Under the pieces are notes generated by a model. That model searched no databases, was not told the DNA's origin, and was given only the letters and a program-made list of their open reading frames with translations. 64,000 bases of DNA from NCBI GenBank assembly GCA_965205565.1, contig CBDBID010000043.1:135997-199996 (forward strand), in the 5' to 3' direction. The first letter of the stretch is position 1, and each line of letters opens with the position of its first letter. This stretch comes from Acidobacteriota bacterium (GTDB taxonomy: Bacteria > Acidobacteriota > UBA6911 > RPQK01 > CBDBID01). The position numbers and the translations under genes are program-made. Shown here one piece after another: positions 3,366 to 64,000 of the stretch.

Positions 3366-3416
3366 CGATCTGACCCCTTTTCCCCGGTCTCATCCCGGGG
3401 CTCGACAGACTCTCGA

Positions 3417-5384
3417 TCACTTTGCAAGACTCCCGGAACTCTGCCTCAATTGGCTCTCCGGATCAGTCGCATCCTGAACCACCATTAGAGGCATTTCGGC
3501 GACCAGCAATCGGGCGCCTGGTCTGCCCTGGATCAGGGGTTGGGCGAAGATCTGCATCCGATGTGGCGTCGGCGTGAGTGGGGCATGCGATTCGGCTTGC
3601 AGGAAGATGGTGATCTTCTGGATATCCGGGAGAAAGCTGTATCTCTTGAAGGTGAAGTCGCGGGGCGTTCGCTTGTTTTCGATGGCGGTTCCCATCAAGG
3701 CCTGTACCCCTTGCGGAAGGCCCTCCACCAGCAAGACCAACTCTCCGGCTCCGTTGCCAAAGTCCCGCTCGCCGCCGCCTTCCGTCACCCTGGCGTCGAT
3801 CTCTTCAATCCGGGTGGTCACGTACAGGGTGGTGGCCATGCCCTGCCTCAGGTTGATGCGATAGGGATCGATTCGGACGTCCTCGAAGCCCCTTCTCAGG
3901 GTCTCTATCGTGACCTCGCCGACGTGAGGAATTTGTTCTCGAACCAGGAGCCGGTACCGGTATTTGGGGCCTCCGGCACGGGCGGTCGCGTCCCGCACCT
4001 GCAGGATGTAATCACCGGACTGCTCGAAGGTCTCGATGATCTTCGGTTCGATCGCCTTGAGGTCCCAGCTGCCCGAATCTCCCAGGGACTCCATGCGCTG
4101 GATGTTGTTGATCGTCACGCGGCCGCTGGCGTCGCGGATCTCCAAGCGGGGGTTGAAGTAGGGCGGCCGGATCTCCAGGGTCTGGAGTTCGAAGGCCAGA
4201 TGCTGGTCCGACTCCAACCTCATGCGGAAGTAATCGACGTCACCGGGCTTTTCGATGGTTCCCTCCACCAATGCTGGAAGAACGATATCGGTGGCCTCGG
4301 CGGTGGCGTTGTTGGGTTCCCGCTCGGGCGCCACAACCAGCCGCATGGGTGCCGGCGAGGGGCGTTGTGGGAGGGCCTCCTCCAAGCGATCAATGCCGCC
4401 TGGGCGCTCCCCCAAGAGGGCCTCGCGCCGGGTAGAGGTGTAGGCCAACGCCTGCGTGCCCACGGTTCGAGACCATAACAGGTTCAGACGATTGGTGCCC
4501 AGCGAGCGCGCGAAGATCCGATCCTTCCAGTGGGGATCCGTCAAACGGTGCAGGTAAGCGGAGGCCGGCCCCACCGGGACGATGCGCAACTGGTAACTGT
4601 GATCCCACCCTCCTTTGAAGCACTCCGATCCGACCTGCAGGAGATAGCAACCCTTCCGGTCGAACCAGTGGCTCAAACCGGAGTTGAGGGGAGTGTCACC
4701 TTCGAAAATCTCGGTGTGAAAGGCCAGGTAAGTGGTCTGCTGGGAGTCAAACCAGCTGCCGCCGGGCGCATCCAGCCGCAGCTGAGGGCGAAACCCCTTC
4801 TGGAGGCCCTCCCGGCTGAGAATCACCTCGAACGCCAGTTCCTGATCCTTCTCCACATCAAAGCTGTAGTAGTCCAGTTCCCCCTGGCGCCCGATCCGGC
4901 CATTGACCACGGCGGGAACGGGGAGGTGCTGGGCCTGACTGGGCTGGTGGTGCGCCAGCTCGGTCTCAGCGATGACCGGATCGTCGTGAACCTGGAAGTA
5001 GAGTAAGTTCGATATTCCTCGTGCGGAGACCAGCCGAAGGGGTTGAGGTCCAAGGCGGCATTCCGGCTCGACGGTCAGCTGCAGCAGCACCCGGAACTCG
5101 CGGTCAGCCTCTTCCGGTGGCGCGGAGTCTTCTCCCTCCTGGGGTACTTCCAGCGATTCGACCTTCAGGATCTCGCCCCGCAGGCCGTCCCGGTCAAACC
5201 AGGCGGAAGCCACTCCGCCCAGCGCCTTGCCCCGCACCTCGACTCGCAGGCTGCTGCCCGCTCGGGCTCCCAGGGGGAAAAGCGCCTGCAGCTGCGGCTC
5301 AGCGGGTTGAGAGGCTAGAGCCTGAGGAGGCAACAGGCAGCTGCTCCCCAGGATTGTCGACAGCACCAGCCGGGCGAGGGTCAT
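3417..5384 (-). CDS. Secreted protein with tandem PPC (pre-peptidase C-terminal)-like beta-sandwich domains. It is a paralog of 39606..41570.
   Basis: Signal peptide MTLARLVLSTILGSSCLLPPQALA. Repeats ELDYYSFDVEKDQELAFEVIL and PGDVDYFRMRLESDQHLAFELQTLE. Its domain order is collinear with the 654-aa protein at 39606..41570. Confidence 0.65.
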   Translation of the reverse strand: MTLARLVLSTILGSSCLLPPQALASQPAEPQLQALFPLGARAGSSLRVEVRGKALGGVASAWFDRDGLRGEILKVESLEVPQEGEDSAPPEEADREFRVLLQLTVEPECRLGPQPLRLVSARGISNLLYFQVHDDPVIAETELAHHQPSQAQHLPVPAVVNGRIGRQGELDYYSFDVEKDQELAFEVILSREGLQKGFRPQLRLDAPGGSWFDSQQTTYLAFHTEIFEGDTPLNSGLSHWFDRKGCYLLQVGSECFKGGWDHSYQLRIVPVGPASAYLHRLTDPHWKDRIFARSLGTNRLNLLWSRTVGTQALAYTSTRREALLGERPGGIDRLEEALPQRPSPAPMRLVVAPEREPNNATAEATDIVLPALVEGTIEKPGDVDYFRMRLESDQHLAFELQTLEIRPPYFNPRLEIRDASGRVTINNIQRMESLGDSGSWDLKAIEPKIIETFEQSGDYILQVRDATARAGGPKYRYRLLVREQIPHVGEVTIETLRRGFEDVRIDPYRINLRQGMATTLYVTTRIEEIDARVTEGGGERDFGNGAGELVLLVEGLPQGVQALMGTAIENKRTPRDFTFKRYSFLPDIQKITIFLQAESHAPLTPTPHRMQIFAQPLIQGRPGARLLVAEMPLMVVQDATDPESQLRQSSGSLAK

Positions 5385-5671
5385 CCTGGGTCGATCCCAG
5401 TCTTCCGGGCTCAAAGTGCGCGGGAGGCGACGAGCGATGGCGCCGCTGGACCGGCTGACCAAGACGAGCTTCCGGTTTCGGGGCCAGGTAATCATGCGTC
5501 TGGCCGGTTTGAATCCCTCTGGAGGCGACCCGATGGACTTGCGGGATTCTTCCCACCCCGGCCTCGCGAGGCGTCCTAGCGCATGGCCAAAGCCTAATCC
5601 CGCCGGCGCCAGCCACCCGAAAACGGCGCGAGATCCACCCCGTCGCTACACTTATCTGAGCGAGAACTATA

Positions 5672-6506
5672 TCATTTCCGGTCCCATCGGGCAAGGTCAT
5701 TCCGTTGGCTCACGACACCAGTTTCGCCACCTCGAAGTGCATTCCGTCGGGTCTGGACCTGAATGTGTCCTCCCCAGAAGAAACCGTGTTCATTGGCGAT
5801 GTTGACCAGCTCCCGGACCGACCCTTCCTGACCTTCCAGGGCCGGGAAGGCCCCGAGTCCATTCCATCTGGCATTGATGTCAAAGGCGCTGCCAAAAGGA
5901 TGATTGCTGAGCTTGGTGCGACTGCCGCGGATGAAGCGCGCGTTGTAGCTTCCTTCGAAAGTCAAGATGTGTTCGGAAAGACCGGCCGTTTCCCAGGCCT
6001 GCCACAGCGTTTTCAACTGCTCGACCGCCTTGCGATGAAAGTCAGCCCGAACTGGGTCTCCCGAACACGGAGATTCCCTTCAGTTGCGGAAGCTTCACCA
6101 TTTCAATGTTCCGCTCTTGCCAATCGCCCACGATCCGGATGGCCTCCGGATTCTGCGGCGTAGGAGCCGCTTAGAACTCAAACTCGCCGAACATCCGTTT
6201 CCGGTTGCGGGACTGGATCGGGTGGAGAATCGGTTTGTCCACTAGCACCGGATCGCTGGGTCCATCCACCGAATCCTGAAAACCGGCGTCGAAGCCAGCC
6301 ATCAGAGCGGCACCCAGGGTAAAGGGCCCCACGATTCCGTCTGCGGTCAAATCCTTCGAGCGTTGAAAAGCTTTGGTGGCCCTCTCGGTTTCTAGATCGA
6401 AGTCTCCGTTGACCTCTTTTCTCAGGTGTCTCAAACCAAGCAGAAAGTTTTGCCAGCGCTTGACAGCGGATCCCTGGCTTCCTCGGCGCAAGATCTCAAT
6501 GGACAC
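5672..6506 (-). pseudogene. Disrupted cell-wall hydrolase. It has an N-terminal PG_binding_1 domain (6171..6506) and a C-terminal peptidase M15-like (VanY/DD-peptidase fold) domain (5672..6016). The two halves are separated by an in-frame TAA at 6171-6173 and a frame change near 6040-6070.
   Basis: GSQGSAVKRWQNFLLGL...DGIVGPFTLGAL is a peptidoglycan-binding repeat. NHPFGSAFDINARWNGLG...GFFWGGH is an M15 zinc-peptidase motif. The two ORFs are in different frames, and the sequence between them still looks coding. Confidence 0.5.
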
Positions 6507-12359: not shown

Positions 12360-12417
12360 TAAGAGGGTGGGGCTCGCCGCGAAAGGCGCGAGCCAAGAAT
12401 GCACTTAGCTCTAACGA

Positions 12418-49978: not shown

Positions 49979-50281
49979 TCAGTTGGCGGTGTCCAGTACC
50001 ACCTCGTGGATCTCGAGCTGGCCGTGTCCCTTGAACATTTCCTTGGGTGGGACGCGGCTATGCGCTTCTTTGAAGGCCCCACTCTCCGTCCAAGCGCGAA
50101 AGTCCTGTTCGCTTGCCCAGAAGGTGAGCACAATGAAGCAATCGCTCTTGATGGGCCGGAGCACCAGATTACGAATGAATCCCGGTTGCCCGTCAACGAG
50201 ACCTCTCCGGGTTCGGAATCGATCGAGGAAATCGTCCTCGTAACCTTCTGCGACGGGTACGCGGTTCTGTACTACGATCAT
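49979..50281 (-). CDS. ABM (antibiotic biosynthesis monooxygenase)-domain protein
   Basis: MIVVQNRVPVAEGYEDDFLDRF...FIVLTFWASEQDFRAWTES is ABM ferredoxin-like fold signature spacing. Confidence 0.5.
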   Translation of the reverse strand: MIVVQNRVPVAEGYEDDFLDRFRTRRGLVDGQPGFIRNLVLRPIKSDCFIVLTFWASEQDFRAWTESGAFKEAHSRVPPKEMFKGHGQLEIHEVVLDTAN

Positions 50282-50427
50282 TACTTGGCTCCTTTCCTGG
50301 TACCGAGACGAAACCATTCTAAACCCGTGCACATACCCTCGCGGGTTGTCACTGCACTCCAGGCATGACGAGAGGTAGTCAAAGGGTCGGCGGTCCTGCG
50401 GAGGGAAAAGGGCCCGGAGTAAGGTCA

Positions 50428-51453
50428 TCACTCCAGGCTGATTCTCCTCAGAAGGCCGCTGTCGGCCAGCAGCCTACCGGTTCCTAGAACTGCCGAAGAA
50501 AGAGGGTCCTCGGCCCGAAAAATGAGCAGCCCGGTTTCGGACTTCAGCCTCAGGTCGAGATTCCTCAACAGCGCTCCCCCTCCGGTGAGAACAATCCCCT
50601 TGTCCACAATGTCGGCCGATAGCTCGGGGGGAGTCCGCGCCAATGCCACCCGCACGGCATTAATGATGGTCTTGACAGTGTTGGAAAGGGCCTCGCGCAC
50701 TTCCTCGTCCGTAATGGTGGCCGTCTTGGGGATGCCTTCTATGAGGTCTCGACCCTTGATCTGCATCAGCATTTTCTTTTCCAGGGGTGCGGCTGACCCG
50801 ATCTGGATCTTGACCTGCTCCGCGCTGCGCTCGCCAATCAGTAGGTTGTGCCTTCGCTTGATGTACTGGATGATCGATTCATCCATCTCATGTCCGGCCA
50901 CGCGTACCGAGCGGCTGTACACGATGCCCGAGAGGCTGATCACTGCAATGTCGGTGGTGCCTCCCCCCAGATCGACCACCATGTTGCCGCTGGGCTCCGT
51001 GATGGGGAGTCCCGCACCGAGGGCTGCGGCCATGGCCTCTTCGACCAGATAGACTTCACTGGCCTTGGCTTGCAGAGCAGACTCACGAACCGCTCGCTTC
51101 TCGACCTGAGTGATATCCGAGGGGATGCACATCACGATACGAGGGCTGACGAGGTGGTTTCGGTTGTGGGCCTTTTTGATAAAGTGTTTCAGCATTTCTT
51201 TGGTAATGTCGAAATCGCCGATCACTCCATCCTTCATGGGTTTGATGGCGACAATGTTCCCGGGGGTCCGGCCCAGCATGTTCTTGGCCGCGCGACCCAC
51301 GGCTGCGACGCGGTTGGTGATCTTGTCGATGGCGACAATCGAAGGCTCATCCACGACAATCCCTCGGCCTCGGGCGTAGACCAAGGTGTTTGCCGTTCCG
51401 AGATCGATGGCCAGATCATTCGAGAAATAGCTGAAAAGTGACCTGAGGTTCAT
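50428..51453 (-). CDS. mreB: Rod shape-determining protein MreB
   Basis: IDLGTANTLVY, actin-fold phosphate loops (DLGGGTTD) and a C-terminal ...AVLGTG. Confidence 0.9.
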   Translation of the reverse strand: MNLRSLFSYFSNDLAIDLGTANTLVYARGRGIVVDEPSIVAIDKITNRVAAVGRAAKNMLGRTPGNIVAIKPMKDGVIGDFDITKEMLKHFIKKAHNRNHLVSPRIVMCIPSDITQVEKRAVRESALQAKASEVYLVEEAMAAALGAGLPITEPSGNMVVDLGGGTTDIAVISLSGIVYSRSVRVAGHEMDESIIQYIKRRHNLLIGERSAEQVKIQIGSAAPLEKKMLMQIKGRDLIEGIPKTATITDEEVREALSNTVKTIINAVRVALARTPPELSADIVDKGIVLTGGGALLRNLDLRLKSETGLLIFRAEDPLSSAVLGTGRLLADSGLLRRISLE

Positions 51454-51765
51454 GTGATTTCCTCAAAGCGGGGTCGAACACAGTCTCCGCAGTCCTGTTT
51501 TGCCTCGTACAAGGCCTGGTCGGGCCGGATGAGTTAGCTCCTGGGCGGTCCTGCCGTGGTCGGGAAACGGCGCGCCACGCCGGCCACTCATTTTAACCGA
51601 CAAGACAGTTCTTGGAACTCTAGCTAATGCCCAAGATGTAGTATTTGTGCAACAAAGCGCCTTGTACCCTCCGTCGATCCCGGTTCTAATTGGCCGTACC
51701 CGAAGGGATCTACTTGCCCATCATCGCCTCAGGATCTTGACAAGGGTTGTGGACGCATGCTAGTT

Positions 51766-51792
51766 TTAGCACTCTCAGTGGTCAAGTGCTAG
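51766..51792 (+). promoter_or_regulatory. CIRCE-like HrcA operator (TTAGCACTC-N9-AAGTGCTAG) upstream of groES, with a TTGACA -35-like hexamer at 51737-51742
   Basis: Matches the CIRCE consensus TTAGCACTC-N9-GAGTGCTAA at 16/18 positions. It lies about 90 nt upstream of the groES start. Confidence 0.65.
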
Positions 51793-51881
51793 AAAGGACG
51801 GCCAAAGCTATCGGCTCCCGAAGGTCGGACTGAAAACGAAAGTTTTCTTTTTTTTGAAATGAGGGAAAAGGAGTTTGAACG

Positions 51882-52193
51882 ATGACGATGAGACCGCTAC
51901 ACGATCGCATCCTGGTGAAGCGGATGGAAGAGCAGGAAGATATTCAGGGAGGGATCGTCATTCCGGACACCGCGAAAGAGAAACCCCAGGAAGGAGAAGT
52001 CGTGGCTGTCGGAGACGGGAAGATTCTCGACAATGGCCAGAAGCTGACCATGTCGCTCAAGGCCGGGGATCGTATCCTGTTAGGGAAATACGCTGGAACC
52101 GAGGTCAAGCTGGACGGCGAAGAGTACCTGCTCATGCGGGAAGACGAGGTGCTGGGCGTTTTGACCGGGAAGAAGACCAAAGTCCTAGCCTGA
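51882..52193 (+). CDS. groES: Co-chaperonin GroES
   Basis: RPLHDRILVKR...GGIVIPDTAKEKPQEGEVVAVG... Confidence 0.9.
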   Translation: MTMRPLHDRILVKRMEEQEDIQGGIVIPDTAKEKPQEGEVVAVGDGKILDNGQKLTMSLKAGDRILLGKYAGTEVKLDGEEYLLMREDEVLGVLTGKKTKVLA

Positions 52194-53888
<1,695 letters not shown>

Positions 53889-53925
53889 AATCTGCAGTCC
53901 GGAGAAATTTTCCCCTTTTCGATAC

Positions 53926-53947
53926 AGGGCCTCGCTTCTGAGGCCCT
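53926..53947 (+). terminator. GC-rich hairpin (agggcctc-gcttct-gaggccct) 38 nt after the groEL stop. There is no U-tract.
   Basis: An 8-bp perfect stem read directly from the sequence. Confidence 0.3.
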
Positions 53948-54205
53948 CCGAGGCTGATATGAGAAATGTCGATTTGACGCTTTCCACCTCCCCACCACCC
54001 AAACCACCAGCGACCAACTTCGTGGATGCCATCATCGAGCACTTCCGACAGACCCACACTATTCCCACGGCCCAAATCTTCGAGCAGCAAAGACCGCCCG
54101 TGCCCACTCCCCAAGACCCTCCTGTTCCCCCACCCAAGGATATCTACTAGAGCGGGCTTTCTGGTTTAGAATCCAGAGCTGGCCCCCGAAAACTGGACGA
54201 TTTGC

Positions 54206-55450
54206 TAAGGTGGCTCCGACCTGAATGAGAAAGGACGGGGAGTCATGGCAAAACGAAGGAATTTTTCAGCCCAATTCAGAGCGAAAGTGGCGCTTGAGGC
54301 GCTTCGAAGCTAACACCGCGTGAGTGAGCTGGTAGCCCGCTACGAGATCCACCCGAATCTGATCACGAACGGGAAGAAACGGGTGCGAGAAGGGATGGTG
54401 GAGGTGTTCAAGGGCAAAGCGGACAAGGGCAGGGCCGGCACACAAGCCGAGAGCAAGGAGCTGTACGCCAAGATCGGCGAGCTGACGGTGGAAAAGGATT
54501 TTTTGTCCAAAGTGCTCGATCGTTGAGTGTGAAGGCCAGACAGGCCGCGATCGAGCCGGGGCACCGTCGGCTGAGCATCCGCAGACAATGCTCTTTGATG
54601 AGTTTGTCTCGTTCGACGTATTACTATGAGCCCCAGGGAGAGAACCCCCGGAACCTGCAACTGATGAGACGAATGGACGAGCAGTTCTTAGAGACGCCCT
54701 ACTACGGGTCCCGACAGATGGTTTATCACTTGCGTCGGCAGGGCTATCGAGTGGGCCGTAAACGAGTGCACCGCCTGATGGCAAAGATGGGCCTGGCAGC
54801 CATCTACCCGAAGCCACGCGCCTCCAAGCCCAATGTGGGCCATCAAGTGTCTCCGTACCTGCTTCGAGATCTGGAGGTCAATCAGCCCGATCAGGTGTGG
54901 TGCGCGGACGTGACTACATTCCGATGCGGAGAGGTTTTTTGTACCTGGTGGCGATCATGGACTGGTACAGCCGGATGGTGCTGTCCTGGAGGCTGTCGAA
55001 CACGCTGGAGCCGGACTTTTGTGCCGAGGCACTGCAGCAAGCGCTGGTGATCTACAATAACAATAAGCCGGAGATCTTCGATACCGACCAGGGAAGTCAG
55101 TTCACCAGCACACTTTTCACTGGCTTGTTGCGAGATGCCTGGGTACGCATCTCGATGGACGGCAAGGGCCGCTGGATGGACAATGTTTTTATCGAGCGAC
55201 TGTGGCGTTCACTCAAGTACGAATGCGTCTATCTGAATGTTTTCGAGACCGGAACCGAGGCCCGACTGGGTATCGGACAGTGGATTGAGCGATACAACTC
55301 CCAACGACCCCATTCGACCCATCAGGGAGCGACCCCAGAGGAGGTGTGCACTGGCCTGGTCAAAAATACTGAGAGGGACCTCGCCCTTGGGCTCGCCCCC
55401 TCTCAGTATTTCCCAGACTGGCGGCAACAAGAACTACGGAGTCCACCTTA
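54206..55450 (+). mobile_element. IS3-family insertion sequence (about 1245 bp), decayed. orfA has a TAA nonsense codon at 54311-54313. orfB is frameshifted near 54911-54925. Imperfect inverted repeats are taaggtggctccgac at the left and ggagtccacctta at the right.
   Basis: orfA begins MAKRRNFSAQFRAKVALEALRS*HRVSELVARYEIHPNLI... orfB overlaps the orfA stop (54523). DDE core VWCADVT | YIPMRRGFLYLVAIMDWYSRMVLSW... Confidence 0.7.
54245..54526 (+). pseudogene. IS3-family OrfA (HTH) with a premature TAA
   Basis: See the mobile element above. The ORF track only calls 54320..54526 because of the upstream stop. Confidence 0.65.
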
Positions 55451-55451
55451 A
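54523..55451 (+). pseudogene. IS3-family OrfB (DDE integrase core). It is split into 54523..55050 and 54897..55451.
   Basis: ...KPNVGHQVSPYLLRDLEVNQPDQVWCADVT then a frame switch to YIPMRRGFLYLVAIMDWYSR...DQGSQFTS...ERLWRSLKYE. Confidence 0.65.
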
Positions 55452-55599
55452 AAATGCCGCCAACTGGTCCAACCGATCGGGTCCACCTCTCCTCCCGCTG
55501 TTCTGGCCGCAGCGATCCTGTTTGGGTCCAGCTAGGATCGGTGGAGAGGTTGCAGCCAGCTTCGGTCTTTTCGTCCCACCGAGGACGGGCAAACCATGA

Positions 55600-55803
55600 T
55601 CGGCGGGGAAAATCTTGCGCGTCAGCCCAGAAGGTGACATTCCTAAAGACAACCCCTTTCCCGCCTCTCCCATCTTTGCCTACGGGAACCGGGTGATGCA
55701 GGGTTTAGCCTGGGACCCCGAGACCGGAGTCCTGTTTAATTCCGAACACGGACCATCCGGAGGGAGCCGTCTAATGAGTGACAACGCCGCTGCTTGGGCG
55801 TGA
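55600..55803 (+). pseudogene. C-terminal fragment of a GSDH-family (PQQ sugar dehydrogenase-like) gene. It lies next to the right end of the IS3 element.
   Basis: GKILRVSPEGDIPKDNPF...PIFAYGNRVMQGLAWDPETGVLFNSEHGPSGG matches the GSDH ...NPF...YAYGHRNPQG...EHGP block. There is no N-terminal part upstream. Confidence 0.5.
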
Positions 55804-56051
55804 GGCCAATCGCAAGGGGGGCCCTGTTGTCTATTTCCGCACAGTTCTTCGTCAGCCTCTCCGTAGGGTACCTCTCAGGGCTGCCTCTCGTTGGGATTGA
55901 TGATAGGGGTGGGCGGGTGAATCAGCCGGGTCTGCAATGGAGGCGGCTTTACCCGAGCGAATCCTGGACATAAAGGTTGGAGGTCTGATAGATTTTAACC
56001 ATCTACCATGGGAAGAGCGGAAGAAGGTCTATCCGGGGCCGATTATGAGGA

Positions 56052-57662
56052 ATGGTCGTTGAGATGAACATACTTCTGTACACGCCTGACAACCAGGTAA
56101 CACGCAACCACATGCCACACCTCTGGATGTTCGTTCTTCAAGCGCTCACTCCACCCGAACATGAGGTCTTCCTCATAGATGGCAATGCTCAGCCATTAAC
56201 GGAAATGGAAATAGTAGATTTTGTCCGGAAGAATAAGATCAAACTGGTCGGAATCGGTTGTATGACTCGTGTGGCTGCCCAAGCCTATCGAGTGGCGGAT
56301 GCGGTTCGCGCCGCCGGTGTCAAGGTGGTTATGGGAGGGCCTCACGTCACCGAAGTGCCGGACGAGCCGATTGGACGTGACAGCGAGCCTCGGCACGCCG
56401 ATGCTGTCGCTCTCGGTGAGACCGATGACATCTGGCCGCAAATCGTACGAGACGCCCAACGAAACCAACTCCGCGAAGTTTACAGACCCATAGATGAAAC
56501 GGGAAAAGAGATCAAGCCGTCACTGGCGGACTACCCCCGCATTCCATGGGATCGGATGAATCTAGACCAGTTCAATCTCGTCAGGAAGATACCTTCGTGG
56601 GGACGCTACCTCATGAGACGGGCAGGCCTAGACTGGAAGAGCTTGTATGTACTACCAGTCGAATCGGGACGTGGTTGTCCTTACGGCTGTGATTTTTGTA
56701 CAGTCACGGGATTTTTTGGGAAGTCTATTCGGTATCGGACGGACGAGAGCGTGGTCGATGAGTTGCATCGTATCAAAGAGCGAGCGAAATTGGAGGGAGG
56801 CAAGGTGTGCGTCTTCTTCATCGATGACAATTTTGCCATCAACGTCAAGCGAACCAAGTCGTTGCTTCGTGAAATGATCGCTCGTGACGCCGTGTTGCCC
56901 TGGGTGGCCCAAATCAGCATGAATCTACTTCGTGACGAAGAACTGGTCGACCTGATCGCTGCCAGTGGAGGGCACTGGATATTCATGGGACTTGAGTCGG
57001 TTGACGCTGAGAGCCTGAAGGGGGTCAACAAAGGGTTCAATAAGCCGGATCAATACAAAGCGGTCATAGAGCGGTTAGCGGACCGGGGCATTTACGCCAT
57101 CACCTCCTTCATCTTTGGAATGGACACAGACCGCCCCGGTGTCGCAAAGAAAACACTCCAAGCTATAGAGTCCTGGCCTCCTGGCCTCCCGGTATTCGGG
57201 CTTCTCACGCCGTATCCCGCCACCCCTCTCTACGATCGTCTCCTCCAGCAGAATCGTCTCACCCGACCCAAACACTGGCTCGACTTCCGTCCTTTCCGGA
57301 TGGCTTTCACACCCGAGAATATCAGCGTGGAACAAGCCGAATCCGAAGTTCACGAGGCCTGGAGTCGTTGTTACGATCCACAGGCCATTGCCGCCGGTCT
57401 CAAGAAGATTGAAGGACGTCCGTTTATCGAACGCGCCGCGATGTTCTTCGCACGGCTCACCTTTCGGGGCATCTATTTCCCCCAGATGAAGGTACGGTCA
57501 TGGATTTCACTGTTGTTCAGCAACCGCCGGACCTTGCTGAAGTTAATACACGAGGGCTTTATTGCTCATCAGAGGCACCGTCAAAGCACGAGGCCAACGG
57601 ACGACTTGGGCCGGGTCTCTGTTAAACGGGTTAAACGCCTTAAGAGGATTTTCCCGGTTTAA
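56052..57662 (+). CDS. B12-binding radical SAM protein (class B), with a DUF4070-like C-terminus
   Basis: N-terminal cobalamin-binding region (IKLVGIGCMTRVAAQAY...VVMGGPHVT). Radical SAM Cys triad CPYGCDFC. Confidence 0.75.
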   Translation: MVVEMNILLYTPDNQVTRNHMPHLWMFVLQALTPPEHEVFLIDGNAQPLTEMEIVDFVRKNKIKLVGIGCMTRVAAQAYRVADAVRAAGVKVVMGGPHVTEVPDEPIGRDSEPRHADAVALGETDDIWPQIVRDAQRNQLREVYRPIDETGKEIKPSLADYPRIPWDRMNLDQFNLVRKIPSWGRYLMRRAGLDWKSLYVLPVESGRGCPYGCDFCTVTGFFGKSIRYRTDESVVDELHRIKERAKLEGGKVCVFFIDDNFAINVKRTKSLLREMIARDAVLPWVAQISMNLLRDEELVDLIAASGGHWIFMGLESVDAESLKGVNKGFNKPDQYKAVIERLADRGIYAITSFIFGMDTDRPGVAKKTLQAIESWPPGLPVFGLLTPYPATPLYDRLLQQNRLTRPKHWLDFRPFRMAFTPENISVEQAESEVHEAWSRCYDPQAIAAGLKKIEGRPFIERAAMFFARLTFRGIYFPQMKVRSWISLLFSNRRTLLKLIHEGFIAHQRHRQSTRPTDDLGRVSVKRVKRLKRIFPV

Positions 57663-57844
57663 AGGAATGGCGCGATGCAGTGGACGAGTATCAGAAGATG
57701 GCCAAGCACTGACCAAGCTTTCGAAATCTGTCTCCCAAATGTTTCCCACTGCGTTTCCGAATGTTTCCTAATCTTTCGGCTTTTCGGGTGGCGGAAAACC
57801 CAGTCAAGTGGTTGTTTTTCCTAACGTTTCGGCCTTTTCTAGGA

Positions 57845-57894
57845 TTGGTCTACGAAACCAAAGGTCGCAGGTTCAAATCCTGTCGGGCGCTCCA
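57845..57894 (+). tRNA. 5'-truncated tRNA-Arg (anticodon ACG) fragment. It has the anticodon arm, T-arm, 3' acceptor strand and CCA. The 5' acceptor strand and D-arm are missing.
   Basis: The anticodon stem ttggt/accaa is perfect. T-arm gcagg-ttcaaat-cctgt. cgggcgc-t-cca at the 3' end. No gcgcccg or D-arm upstream. Confidence 0.6.
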
Positions 57895-58805
57895 CTTAAC
57901 CCTTGGATTCCATTGATCTTGAGTTGATATTTACTGCACCGAACTGGTGCCACTTTCTCCGTCGTACAACATTTCTACAACGTCATTACCCTGACCCAGT
58001 GCTTGATCCAGAGCGGAAGAAGACGTCTCCAGCTCTCGGGCGTCCACTGGTCAAACGTGGACATTGGGTCTCACTTTTGCACCCTATCCGCACCCGGCGA
58101 GTCCCGGTTTGCCCTCTAAGGCTAACTGTGTCTCCGGTCAGTCTACTGCAATATGGCTGACGTTCAGGGTGTTTCGGTATAGTACTCCTTGTGAAAAATC
58201 GAGAAAAAAGCTCGATATTGGGGGGCCCATTCTGGCAGATGAGTACAGGAAAGAAGATCCACACTGGCCCCAAAACCAGGGACGAGATCCTAGGCAAATT
58301 CGGGGATAGTGTCCGAACTATCATGCGCGGCAGTCCCGAATCCGGCCGAAAACCCAGTGAGTACTTCGAAAGGGAAAAGGTTGCTCTCAGGAAGCGTAGA
58401 GATGGCGAAGCGTGTAGAAAAGCAAGGGATTGCGCCGAGGTCACCGGTTCCGGTGTCAGATACTCGGAAGGTTGGCTGTGTAGATCATGCTGGCGAAGCG
58501 AGATGAGTCGGCGTAAGGGCAGGAACGAGCGCCGCAGATTGTCCAAAGGTGATTCCGGCTTTGTTCCATCCTACCCTTGGCAAAAACAGACCTTTCGCAT
58601 TGAGAATCTGCATGTCATCGATTTCAACTTCGGGCGGTTCGACGGGCTTCGAGACGCAGAAAACTACTATGCTAGCAGAATGGGGGCGGAGAAAGATCAG
58701 AACTGATCCATTCCCTCAACTGCCGCTGCACCCCTGGGGCGGAGAAAACGCGGCTGGAATCCGGCTCTCACCAGCTGCGGCAACAGATGACCATCCGTGC
58801 CTACG

Positions 58806-60471
58806 CTACTTCCTATCCGGAAATCGGCTTTTTAAGACGCTCGTAGTCGAGTCGACCCCAATCAACGGCTGGCAATCCGTTATGTGCAGTGGGCTGGGGA
58901 CCTAAACGGACCACACAGAGTCGATTTTAGTCGATTTCAAGAGACACTTCGGCCCTTTGCCAGACGGATCGAGATGTCAGCCGCAGGAGCACCTCTACAA
59001 TCGCAGGCGCGCCAGTACCAGCAGATTGTAGGAAAGGGTCGAGAGCTGCAGGTACTGCTGGAAGCGCTGCCAGCCTTTCCAGTGGCAGCGGTCCAGCCCG
59101 AAGACGCGCTTGAGCATCGAGATACAGCCTTCGATGCCGGCCCGAAAGCGGCGCAGTTGTTTGTATACCCAGCTGGAGGAGACCATCGATTCGATCGAGA
59201 GTCCGCACTTTTTGGCGAAAGCCACATCCTTGAGGCCGGGTTTGTTTTTGGCCAAGGCCAAGTTCGCTTTCGATGCAAAGCCCCCGTCCAAGCTGGCCTG
59301 ACGCGGATAAGAGCCGTATTGATGGCAGTGCCGATCTAGCATCGTCTCCAGGTAAGTGCTATCGGACGGGTTGCCCCGCACCGGCAGACAATCCAGGATC
59401 AGAGAGGATCTGCCACAGGATAGAAAAACTTTGTGCCCATAGACCGTTTCCCGGCCGCCTTTGCGAATCAGATCGGTGTGCTCCTCGAAAATGGAAACCA
59501 CCTTGTGGCTGGCCGGGACCGATTCCCCCCGCAAAACACGACGCTCGGTCTGATCGATCACTCGATGGGTCAGTTCCAGGTAGTGTTCGAGTAAGCTCCT
59601 CTCTCGCACAACACGGGGATGGCTGGAGTCTTCGCAGGCCGCCAGGGCTGCCCGGGCGTAGCCTGCCATCTTGCGGGTGACTTTGAGCAGATCGCGATAA
59701 GGGCCAATGCGCAGGGTCTGACGGCGGGCATTGCTGATGGCCAGACAGCGGCGGCGAGCCCGCAAGCCATGATCCCGGTAAGGGAAGTCGACAAAACAAG
59801 AAAGTCGTCCCAGCCAACGGGCCAGCACCCGTACGCAATCAGAGAGCAGTTGATTATCGGTGGGGTGGTGGATCTCACTCTCCACCGGGGTGGCGTCGAT
59901 TCTGACCTTCTCTCCCTTCTCCAAGCCTTGCTCACAGGCCCAGTCCACCAGCGCCGCGTTGATGGCCCGCCAGGTTGAGTGGCGGATGCGCGAGAGGTTC
60001 TCGGCCAGGGTGGAACGAGCCGGGGTCCAGCCCAAAGGCAGCCGGCAGAAGGCCCGCAAGCTCACAGAATCGGCCAGGTGAAAGGCCAAGCGGTCATAGG
60101 AGAACTGATGCATCTGTTTGATCACACCACAGCGCAACACCTGCTCCCCGCTCATTCCCGGAGCCCCTTTTGTCGAGTCTGCCTCACTGAGATCTTGCCA
60201 GACCCGTTCGTTCAGCTTAGAATTTTCATCGAGGATCTTGGAAATCTCCCGCAGTTCCTGTGCGTGCTGGTGATCGGGCCAGAGGGGAGTCAGCGGCAGC
60301 TGATTTTCACGACTTTGACGCATCTTTGACCTCCTGGCTTTGCCGTAAGTCTTGTTGTTTCAATGTTTTGTGAACATTATTGTACCAAGACACCACGACA
60401 ACAATGGAGGTCGAAGATGCGGCCTAAGCCTTTTATTTACAACTATTTATCCTTTTCCGGATGAGAACTAG
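58806..60471 (-). mobile_element. IS element copy 1 (1666 bp). It has one 442-aa DDE transposase. Imperfect inverted repeats CTACTTCCTATCCGGAAA and CTAGTTCTCATCCGGAAA. The family is tentatively IS1380-like, judged from size and architecture.
   Basis: The period between the two copies is 1668 bp. The boundaries come from self-alignment of the two copies. Confidence 0.7.
58995..60323 (-). CDS. DDE transposase (IS4/IS5-superfamily, IS1380-like), copy 1
   Basis: 442 aa. C-terminal block FRAGIEGCISMLKRVFGLDRCHWKGWQRFQQYLQLSTLSYNLLVLARL is typical of the IS4/IS5/IS1380 superfamily. Confidence 0.7.
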   Translation of the reverse strand: MRQSRENQLPLTPLWPDHQHAQELREISKILDENSKLNERVWQDLSEADSTKGAPGMSGEQVLRCGVIKQMHQFSYDRLAFHLADSVSLRAFCRLPLGWTPARSTLAENLSRIRHSTWRAINAALVDWACEQGLEKGEKVRIDATPVESEIHHPTDNQLLSDCVRVLARWLGRLSCFVDFPYRDHGLRARRRCLAISNARRQTLRIGPYRDLLKVTRKMAGYARAALAACEDSSHPRVVRERSLLEHYLELTHRVIDQTERRVLRGESVPASHKVVSIFEEHTDLIRKGGRETVYGHKVFLSCGRSSLILDCLPVRGNPSDSTYLETMLDRHCHQYGSYPRQASLDGGFASKANLALAKNKPGLKDVAFAKKCGLSIESMVSSSWVYKQLRRFRAGIEGCISMLKRVFGLDRCHWKGWQRFQQYLQLSTLSYNLLVLARLRL

Positions 60472-60473
60472 CT

Positions 60474-62139
60474 CTACTTCCTATCCGGAAATCGGCTTTT
60501 TAAGACGCTCGTAGTCGAGTCGACCCCAATCAACGGCTGGCAATCCGTTATGTGCAGTGGGCTGGGGACCTAAACGGACCACACAGAGTCGATTTTAGTC
60601 GATTTCAAGAGACACTTCGGCCCTTTGCCAGACGGATCGAGATGTCAGCCGCAGGAGCACCTCTACAATCGCAGGCGCGCCAGTACCAGCAGATTGTAGG
60701 AAAGGGTCGAGAGCTGCAGGTACTGCTGGAAGCGCTGCCAGCCTTTCCAGTGGCAGCGGTCCAGCCCGAAGACGCGCTTGAGCATCGAGATACAGCCTTC
60801 GATGCCGGCCCGAAAGCGGCGCAGTTGTTTGTATACCCAGCTGGAGGAGACCATCGATTCGATCGAGAGTCCGCACTTTTTGGCGAAAGCCACATCCTTG
60901 AGGCCGGGTTTGTTTTTGGCCAAGGCCAAGTTCGCTTTCGATGCAAAGCCCCCGTCCAAGCTGGCCTGACGCGGATAAGAGCCGTATTGATGGCAGTGCC
61001 GATCTAGCATCGTCTCCAGGTAAGTGCTATCGGACGGGTTGCCCCGCACCGGCAGACAATCCAGGATCAGAGAGGATCTGCCACAGGATAGAAAAACTTT
61101 GTGCCCATAGACCGTTTCCCGGCCGCCTTTGCGAATCAGATCGGTGTGCTCCTCGAAAATGGAAACCACCTTGTGGCTGGCCGGGACCGATTCCCCCCGC
61201 AAAACACGACGCTCGGTCTGATCGATCACTCGATGGGTCAGTTCCAGGTAGTGTTCGAGTAAGCTCCTCTCTCGCACAACACGGGGATGGCTGGAGTCTT
61301 CGCAGACCGCCAGGGCTGCCCGGGCGTAGCCTGCCATCTTGCGGGTGACTTTGAGCAGATCGCGATAAGGGCCAATGCGCAGGGTCTGACGGCGGGCATT
61401 GCTGATGGCCAGACAGCGGCGGCGAGCCCGCAAGCCATGATCCCGGTAAGGGAAGTCGACAAAACAAGAAAGTCGTCCCAGCCAACGGGCCAGCACCCGT
61501 ACGCAATCAGAGAGCAGTTGATTATCGGTGGGGTGGTGAATCTCACTCTCCACCGGGGTGGCGTCGATTCTGACCTTCTCTCCCTTCTCCAAGCCTTGCT
61601 CACAGGCCCAGTCCACCAGCGCCGCGTTGATGGCCCGCCAGGTTGAGTGGCGGATGCGCGAGAGGTTCTCGGCCAGGGTGGAACGAGCCGGGGTCCAGCC
61701 CAAAGGCAGCCGGCAGAAGGCCCGCAAGCTCACAGAATCGGCCAGGTGAAAGGCCAAGCGGTCATAGGAGAACTGATGCATCTGTTTGATCACACCACAG
61801 CGCAACACCTGCTCCCCGCTCATTCCCGGAGCCCCTTTTGTCGAGTCTGCCTCACTGAGATCTTGCCAGACCCGTTCGTTCAGCTTAGAATTTTCATCGA
61901 GGATCTTGGAAATCTCCCGCAGTTCCTGTGCGTGCTGGTGATCGGGCCAGAGGGGAGTCAGTGGCAGCTGATTTTCACGACTTTGACGCATCTTTGACCT
62001 CCTGGCTTTGCCGTAAGTCTTGTTGTTTCAATGTTTTGTAAACATTATTGTACCAAGACACCACGACAACAATGGAGGTCGAAGATGCGGCCTAAGCCTT
62101 TTATTTACAACTATTTATCCTTTTCCGGATGAGAACTAG
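60474..62139 (-). mobile_element. IS element copy 2 (1666 bp). It follows copy 1 head-to-tail after a 2-bp 'ct' spacer.
   Basis: Identical to copy 1 except for a few SNPs. In the transposase, A versus V at AAC/AVC. Elsewhere RP/RS and RS/RF. Confidence 0.7.
60663..61991 (-). CDS. DDE transposase (IS1380-like), copy 2
   Basis: Same 442-aa product as copy 1 with one substitution. Confidence 0.7.
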   Translation of the reverse strand: MRQSRENQLPLTPLWPDHQHAQELREISKILDENSKLNERVWQDLSEADSTKGAPGMSGEQVLRCGVIKQMHQFSYDRLAFHLADSVSLRAFCRLPLGWTPARSTLAENLSRIRHSTWRAINAALVDWACEQGLEKGEKVRIDATPVESEIHHPTDNQLLSDCVRVLARWLGRLSCFVDFPYRDHGLRARRRCLAISNARRQTLRIGPYRDLLKVTRKMAGYARAALAVCEDSSHPRVVRERSLLEHYLELTHRVIDQTERRVLRGESVPASHKVVSIFEEHTDLIRKGGRETVYGHKVFLSCGRSSLILDCLPVRGNPSDSTYLETMLDRHCHQYGSYPRQASLDGGFASKANLALAKNKPGLKDVAFAKKCGLSIESMVSSSWVYKQLRRFRAGIEGCISMLKRVFGLDRCHWKGWQRFQQYLQLSTLSYNLLVLARLRL

Positions 62140-62205
62140 CTCTAGACTTCTAAAGAGCCGAAATCTATGGTGGTAAGGGTTGTTTTCCTTTCAAGAGGTG
62201 CCACC

Positions 62206-62784
62206 ATGGAAATTCGCGAGGATTTGAGACAGTCCGTTATTCGTTCCCTCCCGGAGATCGGTCAAATCCAGGACCCGACGCTTCGCCACAAAGTCACCGA
62301 CGCGTGGGCTTACAGTCTGGGGAAAAGCTCTTTCCAGTCCATCGACGAAATCCGCGCCTCCGGCAATCCGGACACACCAAAGCTGAAACGTGGCACTCAA
62401 ACGGATCACATTCGGGGCGTTACCCGGCTGGCCATCTCCATCGCCGACACCATGCTGGAAATGTTCCCTCAGCTGCCCATTGATAGGGATCTCCTGCTGG
62501 CCTGTGTTTTGTGCCATGACGTCGGCAAGCCCTTCGAGTTTGACCCGGAGAACCAGAATCGCTGGAACTCGAATCCCGCTTCTTCGGGTTTCCCCGCCAT
62601 TCGTCACACCCAGTTCGGCACCCACGTGTGTCTGACCCTGGGACTGCCCGAGGAGGTGTGTCACGCTGCGGGCTGCCACTCCGGCGAGGGTGAATTGGTG
62701 ACGCGATCGTTGCATGTGACCATCGTCCATCACGCCGACTACGCTTTTTGGGCCACCCTGGGAACCGCTCAGCAGCTGGAGTGA
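62206..62784 (+). CDS. HD-domain phosphohydrolase
   Basis: H...HD motif (LLACVLCHDVGK) and downstream His residues (HAAGCHSGEG, IVHHADY). Confidence 0.6.
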   Translation: MEIREDLRQSVIRSLPEIGQIQDPTLRHKVTDAWAYSLGKSSFQSIDEIRASGNPDTPKLKRGTQTDHIRGVTRLAISIADTMLEMFPQLPIDRDLLLACVLCHDVGKPFEFDPENQNRWNSNPASSGFPAIRHTQFGTHVCLTLGLPEEVCHAAGCHSGEGELVTRSLHVTIVHHADYAFWATLGTAQQLE

Positions 62785-62855
62785 GTGGCTCTCCGGGGAA
62801 GTGGGGGAGGGCGTGCCGGTTAATAGAGCGGAAGCAGCTCGAGGCGAGGGAAGCT

Positions 62856-64000
62856 TCAACGGTCTCCTTCCTGAAACCTCCTGGCAACTTCTTCGACCTC
62901 GGACCAGACTCGCAGGGTGTTGCCCGAGCAGATCTTTTCGATGTCCTCCTCCGAGTAGCCTCTCTTGAGCAGCTCGAAGAGCAGGTTGGGGTAATCGGCC
63001 ACGCTTTTCAGGCCAGTGGGCAGGGAGTCTCCCAATCCGTCGAAATCCGAACCCAGGCCGACATGATCGATCCCCACCAACCGGACCACGTGGTCGATTT
63101 GCTCCACCACATCCAGGAGATCCCCGTAGGGTAGATTGTGGGTCTTGCGATACTGCTCGCTGTAAATCCTGGCCGCCTCACTGGACCGCTCCAGGCCCTT
63201 TTCTTTCAGATACCGGGCGATCTCCCGACTGGCCTGGCTGCTTCCTCGGCGATACTCGTCATTCACGAAGTTGGAGCCGAAATTGATCTGGATCACTCCG
63301 CCTTTTTCCGCCAACAACCGGATCATTTCGTCGCTCATGTTGCGCTCCCAGCCAGGAGTGAACCGGCGACAGGAAGAATGGGAAGCGATCGCAGGAGCCC
63401 GCGAAAAATCCATCACCTGAAAGAAGGCCTGGTCCGATAGATGGGACACATCGACGATCATGCCCAGCCGGTTCATCTCTTCGATGACCAGGTAGCCGTA
63501 GGGACTCACCCCGTTCCATCTTCTCTGCTTGTCGTAGGACGAATCGCAGATCAGATTGCTCTTGGAATGAGCCAGAGTGATGTAGCGCACTCCTCGGTCG
63601 TAAAAGTGCTTCAGATGGTCCAAGTCCTGTTCCAGCGCCGCCCCATTCTCAATCCCCAGGGGAAAGGAGATTTTCGAGTCAGCAAAATGGGATCGAACCT
63701 CAGCCGGGGAGCGGGCGATGGCACACTGTCCCGGCTGCTGTTCGACCAGCCCTTCCACCAGATCGATCAACTGGTCCGCATAGGCCTTTGCTCCTCCGGT
63801 GACCTGGTAGGAAGCCTGGACGTAGATGGACAGAAAGGTCGCGTTGAGCCCTCCGGCCCTGGCCCTGGGGAAATCGAAATCGCCTCCGTCGGTCCGCTGG
63901 AAGACGTCTTCCATCTTTCGAGTCAGACGATCAGGAAGGTCGATATGAGTATCGAAGATGAGCAGTTTCTGTGCCAGGGCCTGGGAGCGCTGTCTCCAGT
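62856..64000 (-). CDS. Peptidase M19 (membrane/renal dipeptidase family). The 5' end runs beyond the window edge.
   Basis: The reading frame stays open to position 64000 and reads ...LLIFDTHIDLPDRLTRK (the M19 N-terminal HxD motif). It also has the IDHVGLGSDFDG block. Confidence 0.75.
   Translation of the reverse strand, partial: WRQRSQALAQKLLIFDTHIDLPDRLTRKMEDVFQRTDGGDFDFPRARAGGLNATFLSIYVQASYQVTGGAKAYADQLIDLVEGLVEQQPGQCAIARSPAEVRSHFADSKISFPLGIENGAALEQDLDHLKHFYDRGVRYITLAHSKSNLICDSSYDKQRRWNGVSPYGYLVIEEMNRLGMIVDVSHLSDQAFFQVMDFSRAPAIASHSSCRRFTPGWERNMSDEMIRLLAEKGGVIQINFGSNFVNDEYRRGSSQASREIARYLKEKGLERSSEAARIYSEQYRKTHNLPYGDLLDVVEQIDHVVRLVGIDHVGLGSDFDGLGDSLPTGLKSVADYPNLLFELLKRGYSEEDIEKICSGNTLRVWSEVEEVARRFQEGDR

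Follow-up and report, generated by a model that had tools for sequence, protein, structure and literature searches.

The stretch analysed in this study, hereafter the window, comprises 64,000 nucleotides of an Acidobacteriota bacterium (contig CBDBID010000043.1 of assembly GCA_965205565.1, positions 135,997 to 199,996), and near its right end it carries two copies of one insertion sequence (IS) arranged head to tail on the minus strand. Comparison of the window with itself returned a direct repeat at 58806-62144 with a period of exactly 1668 bp, which is real and could not have arisen as a chance match; the same comparison found no third copy of the element in the 64 kb. The two copies differ at four positions, all of them transitions (59638 G/A, 59871 G/A, 60294 C/T and 60372 G/A), and each retains an intact minus-strand open reading frame (ORF) of 442 amino acids (aa), the two proteins differing solely by A229V. 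The original prediction had described two near-identical copies of the same IS, placed head to tail with this period and distinguished by an alanine or a valine in the transposase. All of this was confirmed; the arrangement is a genuine one, and the copies are distinct sequence variants. From left to right, the window reads TACGCTA, copy 1, TAGCTCTA, copy 2, TAGCTCTA, and the outer 8-mer is identical to the 8-mer at the junction. The features of the window and the loci with which they were compared are collected in Table 1, in which IRL and IRR denote the left and right inverted repeats of the element.

Table 1. The tandem pair in the window, tandem arrays at other loci and sequences flanking the element (target sequences of the two window-flank rows and the two CcmE rows in transposase orientation).
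Feature	Position	Strand	Remarks
Target-type heptamer TACGCTA (TAGCGTA in transposase orientation)	58802..58808		flanks the IRR end of copy 1
IS copy 1, 1660 bp	58809..60468	-	limits from the faithful 8-bp duplication, L005 against IS-free L110
Transposase ORF of copy 1, 442 aa, Ala229	58995..60323	-	NF033593 and Pfam matches
Junction 8-mer TAGCTCTA	60469..60476		IRL end of copy 1 to its left, IRR end of copy 2 to its right
IS copy 2, 1660 bp	60477..62136	-	four transitions from copy 1
Transposase ORF of copy 2, 442 aa, Val229	60663..61991	-	
Outer 8-mer TAGCTCTA	62137..62144		IRL side of copy 2
Native flank gacttctaaagagcc...	62145..62165		contiguous with TTAGATCTA in IS-free L013-L017
L009, second head-to-tail dimer of the same IS, another sample	1185-4518		junction TAGATCTA
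L054, two head-to-tail copies			
L079, head-to-tail array			
L084, a relative of 51 % identity in at least five copies, head to tail	OZ240210.1 3165676-3172025		runs off both locus ends
L086, two copies			outer TAGGTA twice, junction TAGCTA
L088, two copies			
L094, partial copy and full copy			
L097, three copies			
HD-gene flank of window			native TAGATCTA; occupied TAGAGCTA at outer side and junction
Radical-SAM flank of window			native TAGACTA; occupied TAGCGTA
CcmE site, L004	about 2845-2852 and 4519-4526		native TAGTACTA; occupied TAGTACTA-IS-TAGCACTA
CcmE site, L010	about 2845-2852 and 4519-4526		native TAGTACTA; occupied TAGGCCTA-IS-TAGCACTA
Mirrored variant duplications, relatives			GAGCTA on both sides (L051); TAGCTC on both sides (L052); TAGTCTA (L056); TAACTA (L085); TACCTA (L099); TAGGTA (L086); TAGTTA (L037, L081)
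Mirrored variant duplications, sister element about 95 % identical (nt)			TAGACCTA, TAGTTCTA, TAGTACTA, TAGATCTA, TAGCCTA, TAGTCTA

The limits of the element were obtained by comparison with 14 further copies, found by exact-protein look-ups in long-read metagenome contigs, with about 80 relatives and with IS-free alleles of three insertion sites. In the orientation of the transposase, every copy has the form ...Y TAG n(1-2) CTA / GTTCTCATCC...GGATAGGAAG / TAG n(1-2) CTA R..., where slashes, here and below, mark boundaries. The true ends of the element are 5'-GTTCTC...GGAAG-3' (termini GTTCTCATCCGGAAA...TTTCCGGATAGGAAG), which gives a length of 1660 bp and imperfect terminal inverted repeats that match at 13 of the first 20 nucleotides, with the core ATCCGGAAA; relatives from seven genomes terminate at GTTCC...GGAAC. 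Where the flanking hexamer or heptamer of a relative departs from TAGCTA, it departs identically on the left and on the right. Moreover, L110 lacks the IS and has C/TAGACCTA/G at the site where its occupied counterpart L005 shows TAGACCTA-IS-TAGACCTA; the site occupied in L004 and L010 is C/TAGTACTA/G in its IS-free state in five contigs, and L111, at the right flank of L006, reads G/TAGACTA/G. The native sites of the window itself are T/TAGATCTA/G at the right flank, in five IS-free relatives (L013-L017), and gtgcC/TAGTCTA/Acgg at the left flank, in L020. Because of these mirrored variants, the IS-free alleles and the presence of the motif at the native sites of the window, the TAG-N(0-2)-CTA beside the element is identified, from the aligned sequences, as a target-site duplication of 6-8 bp and not as a terminus. 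The target itself is the palindrome Y/TAG-N(0-2)-CTA/R, which becomes Y/TAGnnCTA/R in the 8-bp case.

These limits altered two claims that had been made for the pair. The ends of the two copies had been placed 2 bp apart; the IS-free alleles and the other copies give a gap of 8 bp, and this 8-mer is one target-duplication unit. The apparent 2-bp spacer arose because the inverted repeats first proposed, CTACTTCC... and ...GAGAACTAG, each counted three nucleotides of the duplication (CTA and TAG, respectively) as part of the element. The sequence ct ctagacttcta beyond copy 2, which had been taken as the possible relic of a solo end, is native sequence (...TTAGATCTAGACTTCTAAAGAGCC...) that stands intact in the five IS-free relatives L013-L017, which refutes that suggestion. 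Two other assignments of the ends were also considered and rejected. Termini at CTAG...(G/C)TAG with a 1-2-bp duplication at CTAG/nn/CTAG are ruled out by the mirrored inner triplets and by the plain 8-bp duplication of L110 and L005, and a single CTAG target with a 4-bp duplication and untemplated bases is ruled out by the double half-site that all native sites carry.

The transposase scored 417.4 bits with the NCBIfam model NF033593 (ISNCY family transposase, equivalog; ISNCY_1), whose cut-off is 325, the alignment extending over residues 15-439 and over positions 5-444 of the 444 of the model, and Pfam assigned to it DDE_Tnp_1 and an N-terminal DUF772. The IS5 models stayed under their cut-offs (NF033578, 115 vs 275; NF033581, 54 vs 140; NF033580, 19 vs 110), and the IS1182, IS982 and IS1380 models did likewise. 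The element is a member of the ISNCY family with an IS5-like DDE domain, and the architecture of that family is present, with a single 442-aa ORF, terminal inverted repeats and a short (8-bp) target duplication. The Pfam and NCBIfam matches therefore indicate a DDE enzyme of the IS4/IS5 type and not one of the IS30, IS21 or IS3 type. The original prediction had likened the junction of abutted inverted repeats to the reactive dimers of families of the latter kind, and this is not supported as stated: the transposase is ISNCY/IS5-like and the spacer is 8 bp, so that neither the transposase families nor the 1-3-bp spacer of the reactive dimers of IS30, IS21, IS3 and IS256 are found here.

The element agrees with the ISNCY family in the NF033593 score, in the domains DDE_Tnp_1 and DUF772, in its length of 1660 bp, in its imperfect inverted repeats and in duplications of 6-8 bp. 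It probably belongs to the ISDol1 group of ISfinder, whose members are about 1.6-1.9 kb in length with 6-7-bp duplications. The IS5 family uses a CTAG-type (YTAR) target and makes a 4-bp duplication. With that family the element shares a related DDE_Tnp_1 catalytic domain and the preference for palindromic targets that contain CTAG, but it differs in falling under the cut-offs of the IS5 models, in its double half-site target and in a duplication of 6-8 bp instead of 4. Relatives of 49-97 % identity are present in multiple copies in long-read metagenome-assembled genomes of Acidobacteriota and also in some Desulfobacterales, where they are about 50 % identical. Literature searches for ISDol1 and for ISNCY with CTAG returned name mentions only, and the combination of a strict palindromic Y/TAG-N(0-2)-CTA/R target with frequent tandem arrays was not found described in the searchable literature.

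The target is scarce. Three motifs were counted in 60 kb of the window, CTAG is depleted in the window (77 observed against about 223 expected from base composition), and no target motif was found in 40 kb of flanks of the OZ240210 relative. Unoccupied sequences that fit Y-TAG-N(0-2)-CTA-R lie in the window at 12405, 45509, 47879 and 51620. As in a site-specific element that regenerates its own target, the palindrome is duplicated on both sides, and one unit is common to the tandem copies. Each insertion leaves two intact targets and the target is otherwise rare, and regenerated targets should therefore make up an appreciable fraction of the targets that an IS-rich genome contains.

The two flanks of the pair match different sets of relatives. 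The left flank (50056-58803) is more than 99 % identical to the relatives L018-L020, homology to the IS-free relatives stopping at 58803, and the right flank (62141-64000) is 99.3-99.8 % identical to L013-L017. In a closed relative of 4.57 Mb (ERZ25766727 ctg362381_16x_c), about 2.0 Mb separate the two sites, which have one orientation and are both IS-free; the pair thus stands at a rearrangement breakpoint, as does the IS in L006. L030 and L031 (B61) show a reciprocal exchange of flanks. The breakpoint in the window would fit recombination between copies at different targets. A look-up of the amidase variant P0124 returned no IS-bearing alleles. At about 8735-8760 of L018 and L019, which are IS-free at the site of the left flank, the sequence is CTAGTCTAGTCTAA, compared with CTAGTCTAA in L020; this 5-bp duplication creates overlapping targets and could be an excision footprint or simple slippage.

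Self-comparison of the loci L001-L099, which represent about 90 distinct places, revealed that tandem arrays recur in the family (Table 1). In the second dimer of the same IS, L009, unrelated sequence stands in place of the first 17 bp (IRL) of the upstream copy, and the dimer adjoins a Tn3-type transposase fragment. The members of the L084 array differ from one another by 17-20 nt, and their junctions are TAACTA in three cases and a 2-bp TA in one. Furthermore, when Joint Genome Institute (JGI) metagenomes were searched with a pattern for the junction of the GGATGGGAAC/GTTCCCATCC relatives, six contigs with the order IRR-duplication-IRL were recovered; the exact junction of the IS of the window had no matches in the JGI metagenomes. 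A JGI contig of 1793 bp (L116) has a terminal overlap of 102 bp, corresponding to one IS plus 7 bp (a 1.69-kb unit), and is either a circle or a tandem array. The self-comparison of L001-L099 contained no abutted inverted pairs; the sole inverted pair is that of L002 and L003, which lie tail to tail and 243 bp apart (2853-6427). In L113 (1604-1749), a miniature element of about 130 bp, with IRL and IRR 130 bp apart, stands in tandem with a full copy.

The relationship of the copies to each other bears on how such arrays arise. Copy 1 differs by 1 nt from the copy in L003 and copy 2 by 2 nt from those in L010 and L011, compared with 4 nt between copy 1 and copy 2, and three of the four variant bases of the pair are polymorphisms shared with solo copies elsewhere. 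In OZ240210, neighbours within arrays differ by 4-19 nt, and it is at separate loci that identical copies stand: L088_2356, for instance, has the same sequence as L085, and just 2 nt distinguish L084_4049 from L099. Array members are often nearer to dispersed copies than to their own neighbours, and this argues against both a duplication in situ and an expansion by the assembler. A duplication of one copy together with one unit, through slippage or unequal exchange between the 8-bp direct repeats, would be expected to yield IS-T-IS-T (T being the target unit), as observed, and the copies of the L054 pair and of the L009 pair are identical or nearly so. Such an origin is nevertheless very improbable for the window, where three of the four differences are shared with solo copies and both copies resemble a copy elsewhere more closely than they resemble each other; the OZ240210 arrays repeat this pattern, and 8 bp is a very short homology.

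An assembly artefact, either an expansion of the repeat or a chimeric join of two IS-bearing loci, would account for the coincidence of the pair with a breakpoint whose flanks lie 2 Mb apart in the closed relative, and a collapse or expansion had been raised in the original prediction. A join through a shared repeat should leave one hybrid copy and not two distinct ones, and the four differing sites match known variants. Moreover, the same architecture occurs in independent samples, assemblers and species, the L009 dimer from another sample among them, and the pair, at 3.3 kb, is probably shorter than typical long reads. An artefact is thus unlikely here.

The reading that we favour, with a probability of roughly 0.68, is that the second copy inserted into a regenerated target beside a resident copy. 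The rare palindrome Y/TAG-N(0-2)-CTA/R is almost the only site into which the family inserts, and the 6-8 bp between the staggered cuts are duplicated, so that the element has an intact preferred target at either end. In this proposal, a later insertion by a different variant of the same IS would then hit the adjoining copy of the target and duplicate it again, the product being IS-TAGCTCTA-IS-TAGCTCTA with a period of 1660 + 8 = 1668 bp. The identity of the junction 8-mer with the outer 8-mer is expected under this order of events, which we infer, because the second insertion would have duplicated the target copy that adjoins the resident one. One flank may have been swapped, either later or earlier, through recombination with a copy at a different target, and the breakpoint produced in this way. 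Since the target is palindromic, either orientation of the second copy should be possible. That only head-to-tail pairs are seen may be because an inverted neighbour would form a 1.7-kb perfect palindrome with an 8-bp centre, which would be expected to be lost, as large perfect palindromes are generally unstable in bacteria.

A precedent for this course of events is found in an unrelated transposase family. The transposase of IS481 of Bordetella is IS3-like, and the arrays of the present family, unlike the tandem of two copies known for IS481, run to five copies or more. What the two have in common is that a CTAG palindrome is restored at either end of the element and that a further copy stands in tandem beside the first. 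IS481 duplicates a 6-bp palindromic NCTAGN target (PMC4734536, PMC3053399), and two tandem copies at a regenerated motif of the NCTAGN type have been described in B. pertussis I979 (PMC4734536).

Several observations weigh against the insertion of a second copy into a regenerated target. At the three sites with a known native sequence, five of the six duplication copies deviate from the native one, the deviations being confined to the central 2-3 nt. In the window, TAGCTCTA is one central base off the native TAGATCTA and the heptamer of the other flank is two off. The native and occupied sequences differ, and a simple faithful duplication of the native site therefore does not give the observed window. 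The junction unit also differs from the outer duplication in L086, L112, L114 and L009. Furthermore, an extra rearrangement must be assumed for flanks that lie about 2.0 Mb apart in the relative, the lack of inverted abutted pairs could reflect orientation-specific end-targeting as in IS30, and the pair is known here from assembled sequence alone. Faithful duplication is, on the other side, documented for this IS at L005, and faithful copies dominate in the relatives.

The main rival to the regenerated-target reading is a copy-out-paste-in pathway, in which a circle or dimer with an IRR-spacer-IRL joint would integrate beside a resident end by end-targeting and the tandem junction would be the same reactive structure as (IS30)2, with an 8-bp spacer. 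This pathway has been reported for IS1, IS3, IS21, IS30, IS256, IS110, ISLre2 and ISL3, and end-targeting by IS30 gives IRL-IRR junctions only (PMC9333248). The junctions described here are likewise exclusively IRL-IRR, and in the dimers (IS30)2 and (IS21)2 and those of IS911, IS2 and IS3, too, the copies stand head to tail with IRR facing IRL across a spacer of the length of the element's own duplication. The mismatched junction units, the non-native central bases at the three sites, the heptamer TAGCGTA at two unrelated flanks and the 1793-bp contig with its terminal overlap can all be counted in favour of such an intermediate. On the other hand, the families for which circles or dimers have been shown do not include that of the present transposase (PMC9333248), and the spacer is 8 bp compared with 2-3 bp in the dimers named above. 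In reactive dimers, the junction creates a strong promoter that drives the transposase. No sigma-70-type site was found across the junction on the transposase strand here (60250-60700), where acidobacterial promoters may differ from the consensus; the lack of a detected junction promoter is a further difference from those dimers. In addition, genomes retain arrays whose members have diverged, by up to 30 differences in L084, and this speaks against a junction of high reactivity; the junctions of the present family appear to be long-lived. Faithful duplication of variant targets is the rule in the relatives and is also seen at L005. This pathway is consequently regarded as unlikely for the window, although the junction may matter mechanistically.

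The mismatched junctions need a further assumption, namely that a dimer moved as a composite or that spacers are derived from the donor. For L086, L112 and L114, the movement of a pre-formed dimer as a composite is the simplest reading. At the CcmE site, the 815 bp of upstream flank are identical in L004 and L010 and the left 8-mers differ (TAGTACTA vs TAGGCCTA); the heptamer TAGCGTA of the window also stands beside L006, an unrelated site, and TAGGCCTA also beside L012. Two other origins of the central bases were rejected. A hairpin or P-nucleotide origin is ruled out because the left and right centres are direct and not inverted repeats, and recombination between copies, which fits L030 and L031, does not account for every left/right mismatch, since it fails for flanks whose adjacent 8-mer is non-native.

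Tentatively, and with low confidence, the 8 bp beside the element may in some cases be a coupling segment brought from the donor site, for which the IRR-8 bp-IRL joint in a circle or a tandem dimer would be the carrier. In such a model, the spacer strands would remain as 5' flaps after cleavage of the 3' ends and would pair with the single-stranded gap of the target; pairing through the TAG and CTA arms would leave heteroduplex flanks, one of them derived from the donor and the other from the target. The coupling sequences of Tn916-type elements are donor flanks held in the joint of a circle, and they depend on a tyrosine recombinase and involve no duplication. The resemblance lies in flanking 7-8-mers, some of them non-native, that are met again at flanks of no common origin, as though a donor had supplied them; the difference is that the present IS has a DDE transposase and that faithful duplications occur. 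If the model were true, the 1668-bp repeat unit (IS plus 8 bp) would be the real mobile unit, and a DDE insertion sequence would act in the manner of Tn916 coupling sequences or piggyBac TTAA flaps. Donor-derived spacers, if they are the cause of the non-native centres, would represent a new twist in DDE transposition chemistry.

The pair itself is a real and fairly ordinary feature; the arrays across the family and the unfaithful centres of the duplications are the parts that deserve attention. Under the regenerated-target reading, a strictly site-specific IS could build head-to-tail arrays by regenerating its own rare target, which bears on the judgement of repeats in long-read metagenome assemblies and may help to explain genome rearrangement in IS-rich Acidobacteriota. 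For annotation, the ends and duplications of such elements are easily misplaced, because the conserved duplication extends the apparent inverted repeat.

Several observations concern the surroundings of the element. The L002/L003 pair has a resolvase gene on one side and a FitA-like/PIN toxin-antitoxin pair on the other, and the copy in L007 adjoins RepA_C; the IS therefore also resides on plasmid-like or mobile DNA. Several flanks, among them ...gcgtaaccaaggcgac and ...ccctgacgT, are found at more than one locus, as though another repeated element contained them. The flanks in L013-L020 and L100-L111 are crowded with IS3-type rve, IS630-type DDE_3, IS1380-like DDE_Tnp_1_4, IS256-type Transposase_mut and IS6-type DDE_Tnp_IS240 transposases, whose presence at each site varies among strains. 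No Rfam match was found in 57000-64000 of the window, and this includes the approximately 1.1 kb (57700-58800) that separate the radical-SAM gene from the IS. The latter interval holds just one ORF of 171 aa (58191-58706), which is called in relatives and is without a Pfam match.

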